Below are positions 7,997-32,000 of a stretch of DNA of 32,000 nt, in pieces (position 1 is the stretch's first letter; every line of letters begins with the position of its first letter). The position numbers were made by a program, and so were the translations under genes. The stretch covers positions 1,710,001-1,742,000 of the forward strand of contig OY780959.1 of the NCBI GenBank assembly GCA_963675915.1. The letters run 5' to 3'. The DNA comes from Coprobacillaceae bacterium (GTDB taxonomy: Bacteria; Bacillota_I; Bacilli_A; Erysipelotrichales; Coprobacillaceae). The notes beneath the pieces were generated by a model that did not search any database, had not been told where the DNA came from, and saw nothing but the letters and a program-made list of their open reading frames with translations.

Positions 7997-8938
7997 TCAG
8001 ACAAAATTATTTCTCAAGTATTCAAGGGTTTCTCTGATTGTTTGTTCGATAGCAATGCAAGGCTGCCAACCTACCGTATCTCTAATTTTGCTGATATCAG
8101 CTTCAATTATCGGAACATCAACCGGTCTGAACTTTGACTTGTCCACATTGACTGCGATTTCCTTGGTTGAATATTTCAAAATCGTCTTCAATATTTCATC
8201 AATCATAACCGCATTACCGCTACCCACATTGTAGGTTTCCCCGGCTTTGCCTTTTTCCATCAGCATCACATATGCTTTAACTACATCCCGAACATCAGTG
8301 AAGTCTCTTTTGGCCGAGAGATTCCCGACATTGATAACCGGTTTTTGCAATCCGTTTTCGATATTGACAACCTGATTGCAAAAATCAGCCACCACAAAGA
8401 GCGGTTTTTGATTGGGCCCGATATGATTGAATGCCCGAACCGAAATAATATCAAGATCATAAGCATCACAATATATCTTACCAATCATGTTTTGGCATGC
8501 TTTTGTCGCTGCATAAATGTTCCCCGGTCTAGTGTTGTTGTTTTCAGCGATTGGAACCTCGGTCGCTTTAACATGACCGTACTCCTCACCAGATCCGATC
8601 AATAAAAGACGGAGATTTTGATCAATATCCTTCAATACTTCCAGAATATTCAAAGTCCCATTGATATTGATATCAACTGTGAGTTTGGGATTCTTCCATG
8701 AAAGCGCAACTGATGACTGCGCCGCAAGATGGAAAATCCAATCCGGTTTCAGTTCAACTAACAACTCATATATCATCTCTTTATTCAATATATCGAGATC
8801 AACAACTTTGGATTTACTGCTATGATATTCTTCATGGGGAAGTTTGGTGATATGAACTTCATTCCCACTTATTTTATGAAGTTCGGCCTCGAGATACGGT
8901 CCGACAAATCCCGCTCCGCCTATAATCAATGATTTCAT
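7997..8938 (-). CDS. rmd: GDP-4-dehydro-6-deoxy-D-mannose reductase (Rmd-type SDR); product stereochemistry (D-rhamnose vs 6-deoxy-D-talose) not resolvable by eye
   Basis: 313-aa ORF directly downstream of gmd. It has the Rossmann motif IIGGAGFVG, GSGEEYG, YAATK (YxxxK), and FNHIGPNQKPLFVV...VGNLSAKRDFTDVRDVVKAYV...GETYNVGSG. These match the Rmd pattern as I recall it from Pseudomonas aeruginosa Rmd. They do not match the Fcl/WcaG pattern. Confidence 0.72.
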   Translation of the reverse strand: MKSLIIGGAGFVGPYLEAELHKISGNEVHITKLPHEEYHSSKSKVVDLDILNKEMIYELLVELKPDWIFHLAAQSSVALSWKNPKLTVDININGTLNILEVLKDIDQNLRLLLIGSGEEYGHVKATEVPIAENNNTRPGNIYAATKACQNMIGKIYCDAYDLDIISVRAFNHIGPNQKPLFVVADFCNQVVNIENGLQKPVINVGNLSAKRDFTDVRDVVKAYVMLMEKGKAGETYNVGSGNAVMIDEILKTILKYSTKEIAVNVDKSKFRPVDVPIIEADISKIRDTVGWQPCIAIEQTIRETLEYLRNNFV

Positions 8939-8987: not shown

Positions 8988-10028
<1,041 letters not shown>

Positions 10029-11275: not shown

Positions 11276-12739
11276 ATGGCTAAGATTATATCACTAATTA
11301 TCAAATTATTGAATATTGTCAATAAAATTTCTTTCAAATTCGAATGCTTTTTGATGAAATTTCTTCCCAAAGATCCTGATACTTTAATAATGGGCGAACA
11401 ATACCGCAAATTCAAGGTTGATCCAGTTCCTTTCATCAAAGAAGAAAATCTCCCGATTTCATTTGATGAAGCGGTAGAAATATATAAATCCAAACATAAA
11501 GGTCGCTCGCCCAAACCTATAAATAGACGGGTTCCTTTAAACATACCAAAAGATACTGTTTGCCCTCACTGTGGAGCTCCTTACGAATATCTTTATGACA
11601 ACAAGTCCGGCAAAATATCAAAGCAGTGTCGCTGCAAAGTATGCGATACCGCCTTCGTTCCTGGAAAACCATATATCCAACAAGTGGCACATTACTGCCC
11701 TTATTGCGGGGTAAAACTGGATCCACGTCATACCCGTGAACATTTCACTGTATATCGTTGTCCTAACAACATGTGTACTTACTACAAGCACAATCTCAGA
11801 ATGATGAACCGCAAGGAGAAGAAACTCTACAAGAGAAATCCTTCCGCCTTCAAACTCCACTACATAACCAGAGTTTTCAGTGCTACCATAGAACAATTGG
11901 AAAGACTTCAGGCAACCATAACCCCTTCAAAGGTCCAATTGTCGAGAATCCATAATTCAAAGCACATACTGGGCCTAATCCTCACATACCACATCAACTA
12001 CGGCTTATCTTTGAGGAAAACCGCGTTGATTATGCGAGAAGTTCATGACGTCAAAGTATCTCATCAGACTGTCGCCAACTATGCCGAAGCAGCCAGTTGT
12101 CTGATCAACCCTTGGTTGGACAACTACCAGTATGACAATTTGACTGTAGATCAGTGCGGTGATGAAACTTACGTGAAAGTCAAAGGCAAGAAAGCCTATG
12201 TCTTTTTCATGTGTGACAGTGTCAGAAAAATAATAACCTCTTACAACATCTTCATGAAAAGAGATACATTTTCAGCAATTCAAGCTTTCTATTCAGTAAT
12301 CAGAAAGTTTACAGTCATTCCAGAAGACCTGCCTGAAGATTTGAATTTCGTCGTTGATGGCAATCCAATCTACCTCGCTGCCCAACAATATTTACATATA
12401 AACAAAATAAGATTCAAAGTTCATCAGGTAATCGGTTTAGAAAACAAAGATGAAACTTCAAAGATGTATCGATCTCAAAAGCAAATAATTGAGAGATTGA
12501 ATAGAACATTCAAGTTCTCATATTACGTAAAGAATGGATTTGCGGATTTAAACAAAGCAAATGAATTCATGTGTCTGTTTACCACATACTTTAATTTCCT
12601 CAGGAAGCATAGTTCTTTGGAATACAGTCCTCCAGTTAAACTGGAATCATTCGAAGGTGTGACCAACATGCCTAGAAAATGGAATATGATTATCGCTATG
12701 GCCAATGATTACATCATCAACAACTCCATAACAAATTAA
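11276..12739 (+). CDS. DDE transposase, IS6/IS240-type catalytic core with an N-terminal double zinc-ribbon extension
   Basis: 487-aa ORF with an AAGGAG RBS. Catalytic core: GDETYVKVKGKKAYVF (D), VVDGNPIY (D), IIERLNRTFK (E). N-terminal Cys clusters: CPHCG...CRCKVC and CPYCG...CPNNMC. Confidence 0.88.
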   Translation: MAKIISLIIKLLNIVNKISFKFECFLMKFLPKDPDTLIMGEQYRKFKVDPVPFIKEENLPISFDEAVEIYKSKHKGRSPKPINRRVPLNIPKDTVCPHCGAPYEYLYDNKSGKISKQCRCKVCDTAFVPGKPYIQQVAHYCPYCGVKLDPRHTREHFTVYRCPNNMCTYYKHNLRMMNRKEKKLYKRNPSAFKLHYITRVFSATIEQLERLQATITPSKVQLSRIHNSKHILGLILTYHINYGLSLRKTALIMREVHDVKVSHQTVANYAEAASCLINPWLDNYQYDNLTVDQCGDETYVKVKGKKAYVFFMCDSVRKIITSYNIFMKRDTFSAIQAFYSVIRKFTVIPEDLPEDLNFVVDGNPIYLAAQQYLHINKIRFKVHQVIGLENKDETSKMYRSQKQIIERLNRTFKFSYYVKNGFADLNKANEFMCLFTTYFNFLRKHSSLEYSPPVKLESFEGVTNMPRKWNMIIAMANDYIINNSITN

Positions 12740-15237
12740 TCATACTTTTCATACCTGTTTGACACTACCCTTTCTATAAATTCCAATGATTGAATCGCTA
12801 TTCCCAAAGTACGGTTGTCTACCAATCCCAGTTCCGTTGGAGACCAGGTGTCCAAAATCAATTTGACCTCATTCTTACCATCTTCAACGACATCTCGGGC
12901 AATAGAGGAAACTATTGGATCAGAGTCGTTTTGGGAATTCACGGAAACTGTATTGATAAGAGTATCATTGAAATATACTTCAACTTCTAGATTTTTGGTA
13001 TTGATTGCATCAAATGGAATAATCGGTAATTGATTGATGACAAGATCGTAATTGTTTTGCTCAAGGTAAACATTGATGATTACTTCACTTGAATTAGTCC
13101 ATCTGAAATCACCCTCGATATCCCCAAATCCGTCTTGAATAACCTCAGGATTGTTCATCAGATAAATATTTTTTGGAGTTTCCATTTTCATTAGTGTGAT
13201 TTCAACTTCTTGCTGTGAAAAAGCAAATGGCAACGGAACATAGCGATAACGATATTCATTGAGGTCCTGAGAAGTAAGATAGCTTCCCTTGGAGATAACC
13301 CGGTTATCGAAATCCAAATAATCAATCTCACTGTCCGTCAGCAAATAGACATTGCTGTATTTGTCACTCAAATAATCAATAGTGCTTTCGACTCCCTCGC
13401 TAAATATCGGATAGACATCAGTGGCCGCCAAGCTTTTTAGCGGCAAGGCAAACAATCGGCTGATCCTGCTGTCAGTCAATATCACAGCGCTGTCAGCTCC
13501 GATATCTTCAAAAACCTGGGTCATTATATTGTAACTCATTTTTGAATCATCATCGTTATCAAGCATAACATATCCATAATAACCGTTGAATCCGGCGGCA
13601 ACTATCAATATTGCCAAGACAATCCCTTTAGGCAGATACTCGCAGTAAATAGCGTATGCCAATGCAATTATCAAAACAAACGGCGCAACATAACGGGCAT
13701 AATAATAATAATGAAGTATCTCAATTCGCATGAACGTCGATGTTATTAATATATTGTAGATGAACAAGAACGTGATAATCAATCTCTTGTTGTCCTTAAG
13801 GAAAATCCGGGTTTTGAAGAACATAAACAGCAAGCCAAGCGGCAAGGCCAGTAAGCCGGTCATATAGACGTAAGCCGACAAAGTCAGGTTTTTGATCCCA
13901 CCCAGTTTACCGTAATACCCGGCTTGGGATGAATTTTCTACCGGCAACATTCCACTGACAAGCTTATAGGCATAGTAAGCTGTATACAGGATGACAGCGG
14001 CAACAACCAACTTTACCAACCAGGCAAGAACCTTGTTATTCGTAAATTCAAATTTGAATTTAGCGCCGAACTTGCCAAGCAAAAAGATTATCACTCCACA
14101 AAGTACCACAACACCCAAGACAAACGGAATAAGATTGCCATGGTTCAAAGGCCCAAAATACATCGGTCTGCTATTATTGAAACTGTATTCAGGTGTGATA
14201 TACAACATGAATAGGTACCCGATGGTAAAGAACAGCAAAGCCAGATAATTTGCCCGCAGGTATGTCTTGTTACGAGTATTAATAAATAAAAGCCAGTAAA
14301 GAACTACTATTTCCGGCATGATTGTATAAATGGAAATATGGAAGAATGAAAATACTAAAATAGGTATTGATGTCAGTATGATCGAACCTGGCTTTGAGGA
14401 TGTGAAGTAATAAATCAAAAACGTGAATATCAACGTCAAAAACATCTCTGTCAATGACGACTTTGATACCCATAGTACAATCGGTGACATCGCAGCAATT
14501 GCCAGAACCACATAAGAATTCAATTCACTCAAATTCAGGTTGTCGGCAATCTTTTTGACCATGATGGCAAATGCGATAAAGAATACACTTTGAAAAATCA
14601 ACATGTTTTCAATCCCAAAAACACTGATTGCCAGTGCCAAAATCGCTGGGAATGTCGGTATTCCGTGGAATATCCCGGAAACTTCGCTCAGCTCATCACT
14701 ATCGCTTAAAAATGGTTTCTGGGAATCGTAATTGTCAAATCCCAACAAATCCAAGACAAAATCGCTGTAATCTTCTTTTTGACTATCAGTTGCCAGTCCG
14801 GAATACTCCTCGAAGTCAAGTTGTCTTGACGAGTCGCCATAAACAAGCTGGATTGCTTTTGTTTGGTAAACCCCTTCATCCTGACCCATTCCAAAAAATT
14901 CAAATTTATTGAATGAGAAAATTGTTGCAATAATCAAGACTATCACAAAAAGCGGTTTTTTTGGTTTCAATAATTCCAATTCATTGTTGTTCTTTATCTT
15001 ATTTTTGTAATATAAATATCCCAGAATGACAACGTTAAGAATCAACATGAAAAGTTGAACACGCTCAACCTTGAATTTATCAATAAGGAAAAAACCGGAA
15101 CTGATCAGGATATATTCGCCAAAATAATAGAACACAAGCTTGGCAAACCACTCAAGAATATCAACTTTTTTCAACGCCAATATCATGATCATTCCCGCAA
15201 CAAATATGTTTATTGTAAATAACCAAAAATTATCCAT
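12736..15237 (-). CDS. Large polytopic membrane protein, GT-C-fold glycosyltransferase candidate (ArnT/PMT_2/YfhO-like); last 10 codons are IS-derived
   Basis: 833-aa ORF with more than 10 hydrophobic segments. An acidic motif FGMGQDEGVYQTKAIQL sits in the first extracytoplasmic loop. There is a ~250-aa soluble C-terminal domain. The gene lies next to a GtrB-like GT2. Codons from 12768 down to 12739 (VVSNRYEKYD) lie inside the IS. Confidence 0.6.
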   Translation of the reverse strand: MDNFWLFTINIFVAGMIMILALKKVDILEWFAKLVFYYFGEYILISSGFFLIDKFKVERVQLFMLILNVVILGYLYYKNKIKNNNELELLKPKKPLFVIVLIIATIFSFNKFEFFGMGQDEGVYQTKAIQLVYGDSSRQLDFEEYSGLATDSQKEDYSDFVLDLLGFDNYDSQKPFLSDSDELSEVSGIFHGIPTFPAILALAISVFGIENMLIFQSVFFIAFAIMVKKIADNLNLSELNSYVVLAIAAMSPIVLWVSKSSLTEMFLTLIFTFLIYYFTSSKPGSIILTSIPILVFSFFHISIYTIMPEIVVLYWLLFINTRNKTYLRANYLALLFFTIGYLFMLYITPEYSFNNSRPMYFGPLNHGNLIPFVLGVVVLCGVIIFLLGKFGAKFKFEFTNNKVLAWLVKLVVAAVILYTAYYAYKLVSGMLPVENSSQAGYYGKLGGIKNLTLSAYVYMTGLLALPLGLLFMFFKTRIFLKDNKRLIITFLFIYNILITSTFMRIEILHYYYYARYVAPFVLIIALAYAIYCEYLPKGIVLAILIVAAGFNGYYGYVMLDNDDDSKMSYNIMTQVFEDIGADSAVILTDSRISRLFALPLKSLAATDVYPIFSEGVESTIDYLSDKYSNVYLLTDSEIDYLDFDNRVISKGSYLTSQDLNEYRYRYVPLPFAFSQQEVEITLMKMETPKNIYLMNNPEVIQDGFGDIEGDFRWTNSSEVIINVYLEQNNYDLVINQLPIIPFDAINTKNLEVEVYFNDTLINTVSVNSQNDSDPIVSSIARDVVEDGKNEVKLILDTWSPTELGLVDNRTLGIAIQSLEFIERVVSNRYEKYD
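12758..12769. repeat. IS right terminal inverted repeat
   Basis: TTTGACACTACC; reverse complement equals the left inverted repeat. Confidence 0.9.
12770..12777. repeat. Right copy of the 8-bp target-site duplication CTTTCTAT
   Basis: Identical to 11077..11084. Confidence 0.9.
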
Positions 15238-24983: not shown

Positions 24984-25745
24984 CTAATGATATTTTTTAA
25001 AACCGCTGATAGTGTATGAAACCATCAACAGCAGCGATTTGAATATTGAGTTGCCAAAATAACGATACACCCCAAAATTCATCTTCGCAGATTTAATCTT
25101 ATTTCGTGATTTTCCACCCGGAGCCATCCGCGAAACAAGCAAGGCTTCATTTATCCCATAGGCATATTTTTCGTTTTTTAGCAGATTGAGCCAAAGAATA
25201 TAATCTTCATGAAGATTGTCTTTGACAAATGCCGGATTGGGCAGAATGTCTTTTTCGACAATGACCGAACCACAGGGAATGACATTTGATTTCAAAAGGG
25301 TGGCAAAATCAACTTTGCTTGGTACCGGGATAATTTCTTTGATCAACGTCCCGCTTTCAGTAATCAAACATCTCGCTGCATAAACGAATCTCACTTGAGC
25401 GTTGTCGAATAGCGGCATTTGCTTTTCCAGTTTGTCCTTGCTCCAATAATCGTCTCCATCAAGAAAAGCGATATATTTTCCTTCGGCCAAACCGATTCCC
25501 AAATTTCTTGATTTTGATGCACCCAGGTTTTCCCCGTTCTCGACATACCTGATCAAAGCATCCGGATTGGCTGTAATCATCTCACGGATTACCTTACCGG
25601 TGTTGTCATTCGAATGATCATTGACCACGATAACTTCCACAATGTACTTGGATGACTGATCCAGCACACTTTTAATAGCTTTTTTAATATATTTTTCGCA
25701 ACGATAAGCTGGAATTATAACCGAAACATCAATCTTCATTTTCAC
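24984..25745 (-). CDS. Glycosyltransferase family 2
   Basis: 253-aa ORF. Motifs: VSVIIPAYRCEKYI, VNDHSNDNT, FLDGDDYW. Confidence 0.82.
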   Translation of the reverse strand: MKMKIDVSVIIPAYRCEKYIKKAIKSVLDQSSKYIVEVIVVNDHSNDNTGKVIREMITANPDALIRYVENGENLGASKSRNLGIGLAEGKYIAFLDGDDYWSKDKLEKQMPLFDNAQVRFVYAARCLITESGTLIKEIIPVPSKVDFATLLKSNVIPCGSVIVEKDILPNPAFVKDNLHEDYILWLNLLKNEKYAYGINEALLVSRMAPGGKSRNKIKSAKMNFGVYRYFGNSIFKSLLLMVSYTISGFKKYH

Positions 25746-26832
25746 CGATTATCTCCGTCAAATCAGAATCCGAGTTGGGCACAACACAAATACTGGTTTT
25801 TCCGACATTCATCTCCAATTGGCTTCCGTCCTCCCGGTAGAACTTGGTCGGACTTTTGACCCCATCACACTTCCAGGTAACCGGGATATATTCGCCATTG
25901 GTAAAATAATAGCCGCTGCCACTGCCGGTAGTATTGATGTTGAGCGTATAGTTGTCAGCCTCATAATGGCTGGCCACATATTGGATAATGACATTCTTGA
26001 AAGCCAGTTGCTGTCCATTGCTTTCATCGATATGCGCATGATTGAACTCGTATCGCTCATAAAGACCGGTTGTTGCGTTGTATTTGAAAGTTGTATCGCT
26101 GTACTTGTAGCCAGGATAGATTTCATTGGCTTTGGTCGATCCCAGATTGACCTGAGCTTCCAGATTGAATCTGAACGGACTTTGGTAATTGGCTTCCAGC
26201 TGGCTTTGATAACCTGCCTGAGCGATTCCTGCTGTCAGCATCTGGCTATTTGTATAAACATTATGAGGCGCTCTTTTGGCACTGCTTCGATAAAACGCCA
26301 CCGACTCCAAATTATGTTTGATTGGAGTGATATTGTCAATGCTGCTGCTTTTAAGATAACTCAAAGCGTATTTGGACTGACCGTAGTGGACATAGATGGC
26401 ATCGTAACTTTGCGATATATACGCAAAATAAAGTCGGCTGGATCTGATTGACCCTAACAAATCAAGGTTCGAATAGTCCTGGAATATCGCCATACATCTG
26501 GTAATCGATCCCTCTACTGGAATTTCATAGAAGATATCCGCTTGAGATATCCCAGCTTGGGGCAGAGCCTGTTCAATGTTGTTGATCATTACAGCAACCG
26601 GTCGGGTCGCTGCAACTGTTTCACTCACTTCTTCTCCGGTATAGGGACTGTAGTAGACCACCGGTTCTGGTTCCGGTTCAACCTCTTCTTGAACATCGAT
26701 CTCGCTTTGGGATTCTTCCTCATCCAGGACATCGCCTTCGTTGCCATTACCCAGGGAAACAGCCACAAAAACGGCGATTATAACCAGGAATGAAAACAGC
26801 GCAATTATCAAAGTTTTTTGTTTGCGTTTCAT
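25729..26832 (-). CDS. Exported/membrane-anchored DUF3048 (YerB-like) protein
   Basis: 367-aa ORF with a GGAGG RBS. It has an N-terminal TM/signal anchor and an acidic linker (EEESQSEIDVQEEVEPEPEP). The motif PVAVMINNIEQALPQAGISQADIFYEIPVEGSITRCMAIF is one I associate with the DUF3048 family. Confidence 0.6.
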   Translation of the reverse strand: MKRKQKTLIIALFSFLVIIAVFVAVSLGNGNEGDVLDEEESQSEIDVQEEVEPEPEPVVYYSPYTGEEVSETVAATRPVAVMINNIEQALPQAGISQADIFYEIPVEGSITRCMAIFQDYSNLDLLGSIRSSRLYFAYISQSYDAIYVHYGQSKYALSYLKSSSIDNITPIKHNLESVAFYRSSAKRAPHNVYTNSQMLTAGIAQAGYQSQLEANYQSPFRFNLEAQVNLGSTKANEIYPGYKYSDTTFKYNATTGLYERYEFNHAHIDESNGQQLAFKNVIIQYVASHYEADNYTLNINTTGSGSGYYFTNGEYIPVTWKCDGVKSPTKFYREDGSQLEMNVGKTSICVVPNSDSDLTEIIGENED

Positions 26833-26986
26833 AATAACCAGCCTCCGTTTGTCTATATTTTCAATTACTTATTTTACCATAATAACAGCGAAAATGAAAT
26901 CATTTTCTAACCCAGGTGGTACTAGCAGTAACTTTATTTACCGGCCAAAAACAGATAAATTACAGATAATTATATTTTCGTAAACA

Positions 26987-27013
26987 AAGGATGGTTAGCA
27001 GCTAACCATCCTT
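26987..27013 (-). terminator. Terminator-like hairpin after the mutase::Gmd-like fusion gene
   Basis: Perfect 11-bp stem AAGGATGGTTA-5 nt-TAACCATCCTT, 8 nt after the stop at 27021. On the minus strand it is followed by TTTGTTTAC, an imperfect T-tract. Confidence 0.5.
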
Positions 27014-27020
27014 AAATATT

Positions 27021-29708
27021 CTAATCCATATCCGCATTTACCATCAATTTTACCAGGCCTTCGAACGAAACATCACGTTTCCATCCCAAGGTCTTGGTCG
27101 CTTTGGTATTGTCGCCCCGTAGCTCTTTGATGCTTGATGGACGGAAATATTTCGAATCGATATCGACAAGCAGATTCCCGGTCTGTTTGTCATAACCTTT
27201 TTCATCAATTCCCTTGTCACGCCATTCGATCTCGATTCCGACCGTCTTGAACGCCAGTTCCACGAATTCGCGGACACTGTGCGATTCATTGGTTGAAAGG
27301 ACATAGTCACCCGGAATCGCTTCCTGGAGCATCAGCCACATTCCTGCCACATAATCGCCGGCAAAGCCCCAGTCTCTTTTGGAATCCAGGTCACCCAGGG
27401 TCAGTTTGTCCTGACGGCCGTTGTAGATGTCAGCTACCGCTTTGGTGATTTTACGGGTCACATATTTGCTGTCACGGCGTGGTGATTCATGATTGAACAT
27501 GATTCCGTTGCACGCGAAGATATTATATGACTTGCGGTACATCACCGTAGTCCAGTACGCATTCAATTTCGAAATTCCGTATGGGGAATTCGGAGCGAAA
27601 GCTGTCGTTTCGCTTTGAGGCACGGTTTCCAGATTGTCTCCATACATTACACATGAAGAAGCCTGGAAGTATTTGGCATTTAGTTTCGACTTCTGGATTG
27701 CATCGAGAATCCGAATCGCCCCCAGAGAGTTGACATCGTTGGTGTATTCCGGTATCTCATATGACGTCGAGACGAATGACTGTGAAGCCAGGTTGTAAAC
27801 TTCGTCCGGTTTGATCTGTTCGATCAGACGGTTGACATTGGTTCCGTCAGTCAGATCCCCGTAATGAAGATAGAATGATTTGTTTTCGATTCCCTCGAGG
27901 ATTTCCCCTTCGAGATCATTGTCGTTGTTTGAGAAACGACGCATCATCCCATGGACTTCATAGCCCTTGTTGAGCAGGAAGCGGGAAAGATAGAAACCAT
28001 CCTGACCGCTTACCCCGGTGATAAAGGCCACTTTCTTTTCTTCCTTGGTTTCAATGATACTCATCAGCTCGGTTTCCAGCTGTTTTTGTTTGTTGTTTGC
28101 TTCATACTTGGTTTCACCGATGACACAGTAGTAGAACTTGCACTTCGGTTCAGTTCCACTAGGTCTTACCGCAAACCATGATCCGTCTTCAAGATAATAT
28201 TTCAAAACGTTTGATTTGGGCAGGATCTTGTATGAATGACGGACGAAGACATTCTCATTGGCGAAGTCTTCGACTTTGACCACTTTGTATCCGGCAATTC
28301 GGTTAAGTTTCTGCTTGCGCAGGTTGTTGACCACGATTCCGGCATTCTTGAGTTTCTTCGACTTGTTCACATCGATATAGTAACCGTATTTTTCATAGAT
28401 ATCATGCAAAGCATCAACCAGGTCTTTGCCTTGTGAGGCATAATAGTTAACCACTTCAGCCAGAACCATACATGATTGCACGGCATCCTTGTCTTTTGAG
28501 ATCCCGCTGAACAGATAACCGTATGATTCCTCATAACCGAAGACAAAATCGAATTCATTGGTTCTTTCATATTCACAGATCAATTCCCCGATGAATTTGA
28601 ATCCAGTCAGAGTAGTCTGGTTTTTGATACCATAGTTCTGGGCGATTACTTTACCCAGACTGCTGGTCACCACTGTATCGAAAATGATGGTATCCTGATT
28701 AAGTTTCCCTTGTTGTTGCAAGGTTCCCAAGATGTATTCAAGCAGGATCGCTCCGGTCTGGTTACCAGTCAAAAAGACGAATTCACCTTCATGTTCAACT
28801 GCGATTCCCAACCGGTCACAGTCGGGATCGGTGGCAATCACATACTTGGCATTGTTCTTTTTTGCCTGAGCGATTCCCAGATCGAAAGCATGGATATTTT
28901 CCGGATTCGGATTGGGCGTGTTGATGAACTCGGTCGAAGGGAAACATTGTTCCTCGACGATTTCATAATTGACTCCGCGACGGTCGAACATTGTTGTGAC
29001 CGGCACGAATGAAGTCCCATGTTGTGATGAGAAGACAATCTTGGTTGCCTGGTAGTCGACCTCATTGTATTTGACCTTGTCAAGCAAGTCATAATACTTG
29101 TTGTCGATTTCTTCACCGATGTACTCGATGTATTGTTGTTCTTTTCCTTTTGAGGCCATTTCAACATCGAAACCATCCTCAACCATGGTGATGTACTCAT
29201 AGATCCGGTTGGTTTCATGGACAACACACTGGTTTCCATAATGGTTGTAGACCTTGAATCCGTTGTATTCCTTGGTATTGTGGCTGGCAGTGATTACCAC
29301 TCCCGCAAAAGCCTGCAACTCCTGAATCGCAAACGACAATTCCGGAGTCGGGCGCAAATCATCAAACAAGTAGACCTTGATTTCATGATTGGCCAATACC
29401 GAGGCCACGATTTTGGCGAATTCCTGAGAATGGCGGCGGTTGTCATAAGCGATAACCGCTGACTTGTTATGGTCGCCGACATAGGCATTGATATAGCTAG
29501 CCAGCCCTTCAGCCAGTTTTCTGATAGTGAAGATATTCAGTTTCGATGGTCCCACTCCCATGATTTCGCGGACTCCACCGGTACCAAATTTCAATTTAGA
29601 ACCGAAAATCTCTTTGATTTCAATCTCACTTAAAGATTCGATTTCTTCTTTCAATTCATCTGTCAAAGGAGCTTTAAGCCACTTTTCATATACGTCCATG
29701 TATTCCAA
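27021..29708 (-). CDS. Fusion protein: N-terminal PgcA-type phosphohexomutase (phosphomannomutase/phosphoglucomutase) plus C-terminal GDP-mannose-4,6-dehydratase-like SDR domain
   Basis: 895-aa uninterrupted ORF. The start is TTG at 29708 with a GAGGT RBS 8 nt upstream. Mutase motifs: TASHNTKEYNGFK (phospho-Ser loop), DPDCDRLG (Mg site), GYEESYG (sugar loop), RPSGTEPK (phosphate loop). From about codon 559 onward the Gmd-like motifs are ITGVSGQDGFYLSRFLLNKGYEV, SPYGISKLN, NHESPRRDSKYVTRKIT, GDLDSKRDWGF. The catalytic TSE position reads SCV. Confidence 0.85.
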   Translation of the reverse strand: MEYMDVYEKWLKAPLTDELKEEIESLSEIEIKEIFGSKLKFGTGGVREIMGVGPSKLNIFTIRKLAEGLASYINAYVGDHNKSAVIAYDNRRHSQEFAKIVASVLANHEIKVYLFDDLRPTPELSFAIQELQAFAGVVITASHNTKEYNGFKVYNHYGNQCVVHETNRIYEYITMVEDGFDVEMASKGKEQQYIEYIGEEIDNKYYDLLDKVKYNEVDYQATKIVFSSQHGTSFVPVTTMFDRRGVNYEIVEEQCFPSTEFINTPNPNPENIHAFDLGIAQAKKNNAKYVIATDPDCDRLGIAVEHEGEFVFLTGNQTGAILLEYILGTLQQQGKLNQDTIIFDTVVTSSLGKVIAQNYGIKNQTTLTGFKFIGELICEYERTNEFDFVFGYEESYGYLFSGISKDKDAVQSCMVLAEVVNYYASQGKDLVDALHDIYEKYGYYIDVNKSKKLKNAGIVVNNLRKQKLNRIAGYKVVKVEDFANENVFVRHSYKILPKSNVLKYYLEDGSWFAVRPSGTEPKCKFYYCVIGETKYEANNKQKQLETELMSIIETKEEKKVAFITGVSGQDGFYLSRFLLNKGYEVHGMMRRFSNNDNDLEGEILEGIENKSFYLHYGDLTDGTNVNRLIEQIKPDEVYNLASQSFVSTSYEIPEYTNDVNSLGAIRILDAIQKSKLNAKYFQASSCVMYGDNLETVPQSETTAFAPNSPYGISKLNAYWTTVMYRKSYNIFACNGIMFNHESPRRDSKYVTRKITKAVADIYNGRQDKLTLGDLDSKRDWGFAGDYVAGMWLMLQEAIPGDYVLSTNESHSVREFVELAFKTVGIEIEWRDKGIDEKGYDKQTGNLLVDIDSKYFRPSSIKELRGDNTKATKTLGWKRDVSFEGLVKLMVNADMD

Positions 29709-29722
29709 AATAAATTACCTCA

Positions 29723-30766
29723 TTATCTGTTTCTTAACTCGTGTACCTGAGCCAATTGTTCTCTTGTTCCTACTACGATCATATCATCCGCTTCGATGCA
29801 GAAGGCATTTTTCATCCCCAAAAAGACGATTTCTTTTTTGGTCGAGAAGATGATATTGTTCTTGGCGTTGTCGACATAGAACTTACCTTTGGTGATATTG
29901 CCGTTTTCATCTTTAGGCAGATATCTTTCCAAAGCCGCCCAGGTTCCCACATCATCCCAACCAAATGATCCCGGGATCACATTGATGGTATTGATTTTTT
30001 CCATGATGGCATAATCGATTGAAATCGATTCGCAGCCCGGATAAATGTCAAAAAGACGATCTTTGAAACCAGCTGATGATACTGATCCGATTTCACTTAA
30101 TTTTTCATAGGTGTCTGCCATATGGAGTTGAGCCAATTTTTCAACATAATTGACATTCCACATGAAGATCCCGGCATTCCAGAAATAACCGCCTTCTTCA
30201 AGATACTGTTTGGCTGTAGCCAAATCAGGCTTTTCCACGAAGCGTTCAACCTGTTTGATTGTATAACCGTTGACTTCACTCTGGTTGGCAGTCTGTTTGA
30301 TGTAACCATATCCGGTTTCCGGACGGGTTGGTTCGATTCCGATTGTCACAACTGATTCTTCATTCTCATTCAAGAAAGCATCTCCGGCTTTCAAAACATT
30401 GCAGAACTCTTCGACATCCTGAATCAGAGCATCAGAAGGTAAAACCACCAGATTCCCACCTGGGAACTTGGCATTGACTTGCATCGCCCCAAATACCACG
30501 CATGGCGCCGTATTGCGGCCAACCGGTTCCACCAGGATGTTTTCTTCAGGCAAGTCCGGCAATTGTTCTTTGGTAAGATCAACATATTTGTCACCGGTTG
30601 CGATGAAAATCTGTTCAATCGGCATTATTTTCAAAAGACGGTCAACCGTCATTTGGATCATTGTTTTTTCTCCAATCAGATTCAAAAACTGTTTTGGATG
30701 TTCATCGGTAGACAAAGGAAAGAAACGAGTTCCTCTTCCACCGGCCATAATTAAAGCGCTTAACAT
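29723..30766 (-). CDS. manC: Mannose-1-phosphate guanylyltransferase (short form, no PMI cupin domain)
   Basis: 347-aa ORF with a GGAGG RBS. The N-terminal nucleotidyltransferase motif is ALIMAGGRGTRFFPLSTDEHPKQFL. The overall layout is ManC/CpsB-like. Confidence 0.85.
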   Translation of the reverse strand: MLSALIMAGGRGTRFFPLSTDEHPKQFLNLIGEKTMIQMTVDRLLKIMPIEQIFIATGDKYVDLTKEQLPDLPEENILVEPVGRNTAPCVVFGAMQVNAKFPGGNLVVLPSDALIQDVEEFCNVLKAGDAFLNENEESVVTIGIEPTRPETGYGYIKQTANQSEVNGYTIKQVERFVEKPDLATAKQYLEEGGYFWNAGIFMWNVNYVEKLAQLHMADTYEKLSEIGSVSSAGFKDRLFDIYPGCESISIDYAIMEKINTINVIPGSFGWDDVGTWAALERYLPKDENGNITKGKFYVDNAKNNIIFSTKKEIVFLGMKNAFCIEADDMIVVGTREQLAQVHELRNR

Positions 30767-30992: not shown

Positions 30993-32000
30993 TTATCTTT
31001 TTAAATCGATATCATAATATTTTTTGTACCAATCTACAAACTTCGCTACGCCTTCAGCGACAGTCACAGTTGGTTTGAACCCGATTGTTTTCTCCAAATC
31101 TAAAACATCGGCATAAGTTTTCAATACATCACCGGGCTGCATATCCATGAAGTTCATTTGGGCTTTGATTCCCAGGGATTTCTCAATTGCTTTGATGAAA
31201 TCCAACAACTGGACCGGATTATTGCTGCCGATATTGTAAATTTTGTATGGCGCAAAACTGGAACTTGATTCACCAGTGATATCGTTCCATTCAGGATTTG
31301 GCAACGGCGGTTTATCAATCAGACGGAATATTCCCTCGACAATATCATCGATATATGTGAAATCCCGCTCCATCTGACCGTGATTGAAAACTTTGATCGG
31401 CTTTCCGGCGGTGATGCTTTTGGCAAACAGAAAGTAGGCCATATCCGGTCGTCCCCAAGGGCCGTAAACCGTGAAAAATCTCAGTCCAGTAGTCGGAATG
31501 TCATAGAGATTGCTGTAGGCATGAGCCATGAGTTCATTGGATTTCTTGGTAGCCGCATAAAGACTCACCGGATGATCGACTTTGTCATTAGTCGAAAAAG
31601 GAACTTTGGTATTGCCACCATAAACCGAACTTGATGAAGCATACATCAGATGCTTGACCGGATGATTCCGGCAGGCTTCCAAGACATTCACAAAACCAAG
31701 CAGATTGGAATCAACATAGTCATATGGATTGGTGATACTGTGTCGGACTCCAGCCTGGGCGGCCAGATGAACCACAACATCAAAATTGTTTTTAGCAAAC
31801 ACTTCATCCAGACCAGTTCGGTCAGCGATGTCGATTTGATGGAATGTAAAACCGTCAAATTTGTCAAGAAGCGTCAATCGGTCCTCCTTTAGGACAGGAT
31901 CATAATAATCGTTCATATTATCAATCCCGACAACCTCAAAAGACCTTCCCAACAGTAACCGGCACAGATGAAAACCGATAAAACCGCTTGATCCGGTAAC
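30993..32000 (-). CDS. NAD-dependent UDP-glucuronate 4-epimerase-like SDR (CapI/GlaKP-like), N-terminus runs off the window end
   Basis: The frame stays open upstream of the TTG at 31952 listed in the track. My translation of 31953..32000 gives VTGSSGFIGFHLCRLL, part of the Rossmann GxxGxxG motif. Other motifs: YASSSSVYG, YAATKKSNE, RFFTVYGPWGRPDMA. Confidence 0.75.
   Translation of the reverse strand, partial: VTGSSGFIGFHLCRLLLGRSFEVVGIDNMNDYYDPVLKEDRLTLLDKFDGFTFHQIDIADRTGLDEVFAKNNFDVVVHLAAQAGVRHSITNPYDYVDSNLLGFVNVLEACRNHPVKHLMYASSSSVYGGNTKVPFSTNDKVDHPVSLYAATKKSNELMAHAYSNLYDIPTTGLRFFTVYGPWGRPDMAYFLFAKSITAGKPIKVFNHGQMERDFTYIDDIVEGIFRLIDKPPLPNPEWNDITGESSSSFAPYKIYNIGSNNPVQLLDFIKAIEKSLGIKAQMNFMDMQPGDVLKTYADVLDLEKTIGFKPTVTVAEGVAKFVDWYKKYYDIDLKR

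Follow-up and report, generated by a model that had tools for sequence, protein, structure and literature searches.

A lineage-restricted fusion of a phosphohexomutase to a Gmd-family domain with a remodelled active site in a gut Erysipelotrichales polysaccharide locus

We analysed a stretch of 32,000 nucleotides from a Coprobacillaceae bacterium (contig OY780959.1, positions 1,710,001 to 1,742,000; referred to below as the window), in which a single gene joins a phosphohexomutase to a domain of the Gmd (GDP-mannose 4,6-dehydratase) family whose catalytic Thr-Ser-Glu motif reads Ser-Cys-Val. Coordinates are those of the window, and features lie on the minus strand unless marked (+). The open reading frame (ORF; 27021..29708, 895 amino acids [aa] plus stop codon) is uninterrupted; Pfam matches it to PGM_PMM_I-IV over aa 39-527 and to GDP_Man_Dehyd over aa 562-889. 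It starts with TTG at 29708; an ATG stands at codon 4, and the true start may lie there, because the NCBI models of the orthologues are 892 aa long. At the junction ETKEEKK is followed directly by VAFITG (28014..28052), and the linker ETKEEKK itself (aa 553-559, 28032..28052) connects the C-terminal helix of the mutase with the first Rossmann strand, an arrangement conserved in the orthologues. The AlphaFold model of the whole protein (mean predicted local distance difference test score 88.5, predicted template modelling score 0.67) places a helix at residues 534-552, a coil of about seven residues and strand beta-1 at 560-564. Directly after the stop codon lies a terminator-like hairpin with a U-tract (26982..27013; fold energy -17.2 kcal/mol, z = -5.2), seen by direct folding and unflagged by a simple consensus terminator scan.

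The N-terminal module (aa 1-552, 28053..29708) is, by homology, a PGM2/PgcA-like 'phospho-sugar mutase'. Its four Pfam domains all exceed their gathering thresholds, and the four catalytic loops are in place: the phosphoserine loop TASHNTKEYNG (aa 140-150, 29259..29291), the metal-binding loop DPDCDR (aa 294-299, 28812..28829), the sugar-binding loop GYEESYG (aa 391-397, 28518..28538) and the phosphate-binding loop RPSGTEP (aa 515-521, 28146..28166). The module is 45-52% identical to its closest stand-alone homologues (Erysipelotrichia and Clostridia mutases) and reaches no NCBIfam equivalog. Fourteen nucleotides upstream of the fusion lies manC (29723..30766), which encodes a mannose-1-phosphate guanylyltransferase (GMP) of 347 aa without a mannose-6-phosphate isomerase (PMI) domain (278 bits to TIGR01479 over its N-terminal GMP part). 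An earlier reading of this DNA from its letters (the first-pass annotation) had described a single continuous 895-aa frame, four intact mutase signature loops and manC immediately upstream, all of which agrees with our analysis, the frame being the same in the orthologues. An unfused mutase homologue, P0005 (49% identical), also sits directly downstream of manC; because manC adjoins the mutase both here and there, we infer that this intact alpha-D-phosphohexomutase acts as a phosphomannomutase (PMM).

The C-terminal module (aa 560-895, 27024..28031) is an extended SDR (short-chain dehydrogenase/reductase) of the Gmd family, scoring 409 bits with PF16363, 368 bits against PDB 7kf3 and 463.3 bits with TIGR01472, the NCBIfam gmd equivalog (cut-off 415). 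A reference set of 230 canonical Gmds, which is skewed to Clostridia-type Gmds, has 117 columns of 99% or greater invariance; the module retains 94 of these, among them GxxGxxG, RR, YxxxK, NHESPRR, VTRKIT and KRDWG. The extended-SDR cofactor motif and the [ST]...YxxxK triad fall on canonical columns: GVSGQDG (aa 565-571, 27996..28016; the next residue is Phe, against the invariant Ser of canonical Gmds), S685, and Y710 and K714 within YGISK (aa 710-714, 27567..27581). The Arg-Arg pair of NADP-binding Gmds is kept in MRRFS (aa 589-593, 27930..27944). The loop after this pair diverges, with loss of T62, R64 and D66 (human numbering), the helix after YxxxK carries Y185N and N192M, and in the Gmd-specific substrate loop NHESPRRD (aa 739-746, 27471..27494) the Gly after the Arg pair is replaced by Asp. 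We take the post-RR loop and the post-YxxxK helix to be elements of the Gmd oligomer interface. In Escherichia coli GMD, GDP is contacted by N179, V190, K193, R218, R279 and E282 (PMC9415975); five of these six contacts are kept, and the equivalent of E282, the Glu of RPAEV, is Ser in FRPSS (aa 855-859, 27132..27146). The Phe of QSFV, in place of the His of QSHV, was considered as a signature of the fused domain and rejected, because the TSE-bearing gmd of the window has QSFV as well.

The principal change lies in the catalytic columns, where S685-C686-V687 (27648..27656) replaces Thr-Ser-Glu. An ungapped HMMER alignment to solved GMDs sets QASSCVMYG opposite QASTSELYG, and a MAFFT alignment with the 230 canonical Gmds and human GMD gives T155S, S156C and E157V (human numbering) at three columns that are each 100% invariant among the canonical proteins. 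Counted from the triad residue, the module has Cys at +1 and Val at +2; Val687 is present in all of the approximately 16 known fusion sequences, whereas all 230 canonical Gmds and the solved structures have Glu there (human E157, E. coli E135). GMD uses [ST]SE...Yx3K, with Glu as its only additional catalytic residue for dehydration (PMC8987622). The first-pass annotation had read SCV for TSE by eye and named a profile alignment as the check; both methods place Val, and no acid, at the catalytic column. Its positions for SCV and for the TSE of the stand-alone gmd were right, each range being one codon too long (TSE is 9645..9653). Its statement that YxxxK is retained agrees with the alignment to canonical columns, and its statement that the GDP-binding features are retained is correct for five of the six contacts and wrong for the E282 equivalent.

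The fusion has a narrow distribution. Among 5.8 billion proteins searched, only two clusters contain it, that of the window and one at 84% identity. A look-up of their members gives the approximately 16 sequences, which come from Erysipelotrichaceae/Coprobacillaceae assemblies in NCBI, ENA and Logan and among which are complete chromosomes (2.6 and 2.9 Mb). When GTDB genomes were scanned with a DNA pattern, it was located in an Erysipelotrichaceae metagenome-assembled genome and a Coprobacillaceae chromosome; a further match, L002 (Phocaeicola), was a chance match to the DNA pattern within a glycoside hydrolase and was discarded. A full HMMER scan of the whole protein against 1.84 billion representatives returned nothing else that spans both domains, bar a fragment of the same clade, and literature searches found no description of such a protein, in line with the first-pass annotation, which knew of no described mutase-Gmd fusion. 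The orthologues all have 892-895 aa, the same junction and SCV, are down to 84% identical without gaps, and have manC beside the fusion in every related locus. Between the window and its relative L001 the mutase has an NG86 ratio of nonsynonymous to synonymous substitution rates (dN/dS) of 0.073 and the SDR one of 0.058 (dS approximately 1.6), and codons flanking SCV have synonymous changes while SCV itself is unchanged. Two features might suggest an assembly or sequencing artefact, for example neighbouring pmm and gmd genes joined by a lost stop or a frameshift, or else a decaying pseudogene: the linker is very short, and KKVAFITG resembles a Gmd N-terminus (MKKALITG in the gmd of the window), as would suit a fusion that arose from two neighbouring genes. 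We regard this as extremely improbable, because the same SCV fusion occurs in approximately 16 sequences from independent assemblies, complete chromosomes among them, in a frame that is uninterrupted and gapless at 84% identity or more, with dN/dS of about 0.06 over both halves. The fusion is a genuine two-module gene, maintained by selection in a small clade of Erysipelotrichales (gut Firmicutes).

The fused SDR nests within Gmd on a long branch, and the GalE model TIGR01179 gives it 56 bits only; judged by its sequence, the module is a descendant of a genuine GDP-mannose 4,6-dehydratase. Its identity is 59-61% to Clostridium Gmds and 50% to the gmd of the window, so that a recent duplication of the resident gene was rejected as its source. 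The closest canonical Gmds occupy ordinary manC-gmd-SDR operons. Downstream of the closest stand-alone mutases lie unrelated genes, and an ancestral unfused mutase-gmd gene pair was not found.

The fusion gene heads a cell-surface polysaccharide locus of the Wzm/Wzt type. On the minus strand the order is an SDR resembling UDP-glucuronic acid (UDP-GlcA) epimerases, manC, the fusion, a DUF3048 gene, a family 2 glycosyltransferase (GT2), a priming phosphoglycosyl transferase, two family 4 glycosyltransferases (GT4s), wzm, wzt, three GT4s and an ORF of 833 aa; after an insertion sequence (IS) transposase on the opposite strand there follow a GT2, a canonical gmd, rmd, two GT4s and a GT2. The stand-alone gmd (8988..10019; 479 bits to TIGR01472) has TSE, and the adjacent rmd-like gene (7997..8938; 252 bits to PDB 2pk3) encodes a canonical GDP-4-keto-6-deoxymannose reductase with S-G-E and YAATK. 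By these assignments the locus already holds a complete route from GDP-mannose to GDP-D-rhamnose that is independent of the fused domain. A cluster look-up of this canonical gmd returned only the genome of the window. In L009, manC, the fusion, a TSE-bearing gmd and a degraded rmd stand in direct succession, and with a canonical gmd in both loci the fused domain is not the only Gmd of its locus. The L009 rmd (13916-14560) is truncated at both ends and reads NVFAATK, with Phe for the catalytic Tyr; beyond it lie a helicase/DUF4365 block and IS genes. In L010-L012 the order is rmlACBD, manC, the fusion, a GT2, a priming transferase, GT4s and wzm/wzt.

Several features of the neighbourhood may be recorded here. 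The upstream SDR at the window edge (30993-32000) has ASSSSVYG, is similar to UDP-GlcA or TviC-type 4-epimerases and is not truncated, starting VTGSSGFIGFHL...; in relatives rmlACBD takes its place. The DUF3048 gene (25729-26832) separates the fusion from the conserved GT2 in the window only, the GT2 following directly after the fusion in L001, L003, L004 and L010-L012. The 833-aa ORF (12736-15237) lies within the polysaccharide locus and has no Pfam match at E <= 1e-5. The IS-type transposase (11276-12739 (+); rve_3 / DDE_Tnp_IS240) interrupts the locus, with the 833-aa ORF on one side and the GT2-gmd-rmd block on the other.

Scanning metagenomes for NHESPRR[D/E] returned at least 120 loci, with 109 scorable proteins. 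Among the matches listed, 84 of the 109 Gmd relatives have an acid at +2 and 25 (23%) do not: SSL in 13, SSK in two, and SSA, TSA, SSV, SCQ, SSH, SSN, SSR, SSF, SAH and QTQ in one each (the QTQ case is likely a misalignment). The Tyr/Lys pair is kept in 24 of these 25, and Glu-less Gmd relatives appear to be fairly common in metagenomes. We considered D746 (the Asp/Glu state at G215) as a relocated catalytic acid and rejected it; that state is common in relatives which retain the Glu (84 of 109), and D746 is for this reason no compensating change. On the wider scan, triad Ser and Asp/Glu at 215 are normal variation, and what is truly distinctive in the fused SDR is only the loss of the +2 acid together with the +1 Cys. 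The other Glu-less groups are only 35-47% identical to canonical Gmds; what sets the SCV domain apart is that it lacks the Glu at an identity of about 60%. Among individual loci, L084:915-1973 (SSA), L099:1767-2834 (TSA), L129 (SCQ, 317 aa) and L089 (SSV, partial) all lack an acid where the catalytic Glu would stand; L084 and L099 are otherwise near-canonical high-GC Gmds, and the GQDGF substitution of the fusion recurs in L129 and L065.

The SSL family consists of stand-alone proteins of about 325 aa with AGSSLMFG (Glu to Leu) and YxxxK kept (338 bits to TIGR01472, below the cut-off), at L058:5890-6864, L023:5231-6229, L123:8391-9359 and about 10 further metagenome loci. Its genes consistently adjoin TylCIII-like NDP-hexose C-methyltransferases, DegT-type pyridoxal phosphate enzymes and GT2s. 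The C-methyltransferases and DegT-type enzymes among these neighbours use 4-keto sugars, which suggests that the family is catalytically competent at C4; it may be an uncharacterised deoxysugar pathway enzyme. Glu-less relatives beside enzymes that need 4-keto(-6-deoxy) sugars would also suit the view that the fused module is still a GDP-mannose 4,6-dehydratase, working through another acid/base (for example Cys686, as in TunA, where the Cys of a TCE motif is the acid/base; PMC8987622) or through a water network with Tyr710. Its TIGR01472 score points the same way, as does the name "GDP-mannose 4,6-dehydratase" that NCBI gives to two fusion orthologues because the SDR scores above the equivalog cut-off; no other gmd lies within 10 kb in L010-L012; and acid/base sets do differ among dehydratases, SQD1 having none identified at these positions (Table 1, PMC8987622). 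All 4,6-dehydratase classes in that same table, however, have Glu or Lys at +2, and Val is unable to abstract a proton. A continued dehydratase role is also hard to reconcile with the Glu of all 230 canonical Gmds at that column, with the failure of D746 as a compensating acid, and with the presence, in two genomes, of a canonical gmd at the same locus, beside which a second dehydratase would be superfluous. We therefore consider it unlikely that the module still dehydrates GDP-mannose.

A second family of fusions has a type I mannose-6-phosphate isomerase N-terminal to a Gmd-family domain that reads S-T-C-Q. Of its two members, P0343 (640 aa, on a Logan contig) has a Gmd-like domain scoring 458 bits with TIGR01472, above the cut-off, and P0494 (L008:1083-2732) lies directly upstream of manC (L008:2735-3409). 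The N-terminal PMI part of P0494 stands in another frame at L008:827-1082, with an apparent 1-nt deletion near GAATTAATAAG that is either an assembly error or a real frameshift. The SCV and TCQ families have 10 derived states in common at otherwise invariant positions, where 4.1 would be expected (P = 0.002). Among them are Y151F, S156C, A182S, G215D/E and the loss of E157, and six have the same residue in both families; both lie on long branches, and their sister grouping has only 46% neighbour-joining bootstrap support.

That two enzymes of entry into GDP-mannose synthesis (PMM and PMI) carry Glu-less Gmd-like domains would suit end-product sensing, and so raises the question of whether the module is a non-catalytic pseudoenzyme, either a GDP-sugar sensor that feeds back on the mutase (or the PMI) or a scaffold that tethers the mutase to a Gmd oligomer. 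The loss of the key catalytic Glu fits such a role, the nearby canonical gmd could supply the binding partner, and the altered post-RR loop with Y185N and N192M would count in its favour to the extent that these elements form the oligomer interface. A mere binding domain would have no need, though, of the Tyr, Lys, triad Ser, Gly motif and RR pair, which are kept at an omega of about 0.06; the +1 Cys is conserved in both fusion families, which are only about 45-50% identical, and the Glu-less relatives retain Tyr and Lys almost throughout. A pseudoenzyme is accordingly a doubtful account of the module.

The reading that we favour, to which we assign about an even chance of being correct, is that the SDR module is an NADP-dependent oxidoreductase that works at C4 of a GDP-hexose and does not dehydrate it. 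Under this model the mutase would convert mannose 6-phosphate to mannose 1-phosphate and, with the adjacent ManC, supply GDP-mannose; the Gmd-derived module would bind a GDP-hexose and NADP(H) and move hydride at C4; and loss of the Glu (TSE to SCV) would remove the elimination of water across C5/C6 while leaving the NADP motifs, the Ser/Tyr/Lys triad and most GDP contacts. Candidate activities, in no firm order, are a reaction of the 4-epimerase type with GDP-mannose or GDP-rhamnose as substrate, a 4-ketoreductase that takes up what the resident Gmd produces, and a C4-dehydrogenase like Cj1427; the conserved Cys686 may be a new acid/base. The first-pass annotation had proposed a neofunctionalised oxidoreductase, epimerase or reductase, and this proposal is the best supported, because the Glu is the sole extra acid/base of GMD, because purifying selection is strong with the cofactor site and Tyr/Lys intact, and because canonical gmd and rmd co-occur with the fusion. 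We infer such a function from the letters and their context, and any specific product would be a further step beyond it.

Several observations weigh against a non-dehydrating C4 oxidoreductase. One guanine contact, that of E. coli E282, is lost, and SCV matches no known non-dehydrating GDP-sugar SDR exactly, because Rmd keeps the Glu at +2 and in the GDP-sugar SDRs GME and GMER it is the Cys that stands at +2. With a canonical Rmd already in the window, there would be no need for a second 4-reductase; the relatives L010-L012 have neither gmd nor rmd within 10 kb; and the window contains no obvious consumer of GDP-4-keto-mannose (an aminotransferase or RmlC-type epimerase). The context of the SSL genes could equally mean that Glu-less relatives still dehydrate, and the AlphaFold model is least confident at residues 644-656 and 687-692, the divergent loops of the active site.

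A broader proposal, which we offer tentatively and hold to be possible rather than probable, is that the SCV and TCQ domains are the founders of an uncharacterised Gmd-derived subfamily (+1 Cys, no +2 acid, Tyr/Lys kept) that makes a GDP-sugar new to the Gmd scaffold and that became joined, on two occasions, to enzymes of entry into the GDP-mannose pathway (PMM and PMI), committing flux to its product in gut Firmicutes. Products of such enzymes might be, for example, GDP-talose or GDP-6-deoxytalose (by 4-epimerisation), a C5 epimer formed via the Cys, or free GDP-4-keto-mannose.

What is new here is a lineage-restricted mutase-Gmd fusion with a remodelled active site that is annotated as a dehydratase under current rules. 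The gmd "equivalog" model accepts Glu-less proteins (SCV at 463 bits and TCQ at 458, with a cut-off of 415), and PGAP names them GDP-mannose 4,6-dehydratase. Reconstructions of GDP-fucose and GDP-rhamnose pathways in gut Firmicutes may be wrong as a result, because Glu-less proteins receive this name and because nearly a quarter of the listed metagenomic relatives with an acid at 215 lack one at +2. The SCV domain offers a clean natural experiment on the repurposing of the Gmd scaffold, because, at about 60% identity to working dehydratases, it departs from them chiefly at S-C-V. Because the gene heads a Wzm/Wzt-type polysaccharide locus in gut Erysipelotrichales, a GDP-sugar of as yet unassigned kind could reach the cell surface.

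Compared with canonical GMD (PDB 7kf3, 6gpj and 1db3), the fused domain shares the fold family, the Gly motif, the RR pair, YxxxK, NHESPRR, VTRKIT and KRDWG, and differs in having S-C-V for T-S-E, Ser for E282, a divergent post-RR loop, a long branch and the mutase partner. It scores 102 bits against the Rmd structure 2pk3 and 368 bits against GMD, and it does not belong with the Rmds (2pk3 / 6x3b; S-x-E); the Glu at +2 is kept both in the Rmd of the window and in 2pk3. With GalE-type and UDP-GlcA 4-epimerases it has in common the lack of an acid at +2 and an SSxxxYG-type motif (as in the ASSSSVYG of the upstream SDR of the window), whereas its lineage is Gmd and its +1 Cys could act as an acid/base. 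The active site of those epimerases has only the [ST]...YxxxK triad, with no extra acid/base (PMC8987622), and the same is true of an archaeal GDP-sugar 4-epimerase subgroup (PMC12171764). The first-pass description of SS..(V/M)YG as a motif of epimerases and reductases accordingly applies to the GalE and UDP-GlcA 4-epimerase types and fails for Rmd, with Glu at +2, and for GME/GMER, with Cys there.

GME and GMER are non-dehydrating GDP-sugar SDRs with a catalytic Cys beside the triad Ser, that of GME standing at +2 (S143/C145) and being paired with a Lys or His base (PMC8787198); the fused domain differs in having its Cys at +1 (S685-C686-V687) and no Lys/His partner base that we could identify. 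The SDR Cj1427 oxidises a GDP-manno-configured sugar at C4 and eliminates no water, so that the 4-keto product retains its 6-OH, and it needs alpha-ketoglutarate to recycle tightly bound NADH (PMC10680097). We liken it to the fused module by described function only, its partners (an RmlC-type epimerase and dedicated reductases) not being seen in the window. The GMD of PBCV-1 shows that 4-reductase activity can reside on a Gmd scaffold (PMC9415975).

At the level of architecture, the fusion resembles the PGM2/PgcA-type Firmicutes mutases in its four Pfam domains and all four catalytic loops, some of the stand-alone enzymes likewise being encoded directly after manC, and differs from them in its C-terminal SDR module of 340 aa. 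With the PMI-Gmd-like fusions it has in common an N-terminal partner from the GDP-mannose pathway, a Glu-less domain, the +1 Cys, YxxxK and a manC neighbour; in those proteins the partner is PMI and not a mutase, the motif is TCQ and not SCV, and the RR pair is lost. A precedent for fusing non-consecutive steps of the GDP-mannose pathway is provided by the bifunctional PMI-GMP enzymes (AlgA/WbpW/ManC type), which are built from different domains and in which both activities are known.

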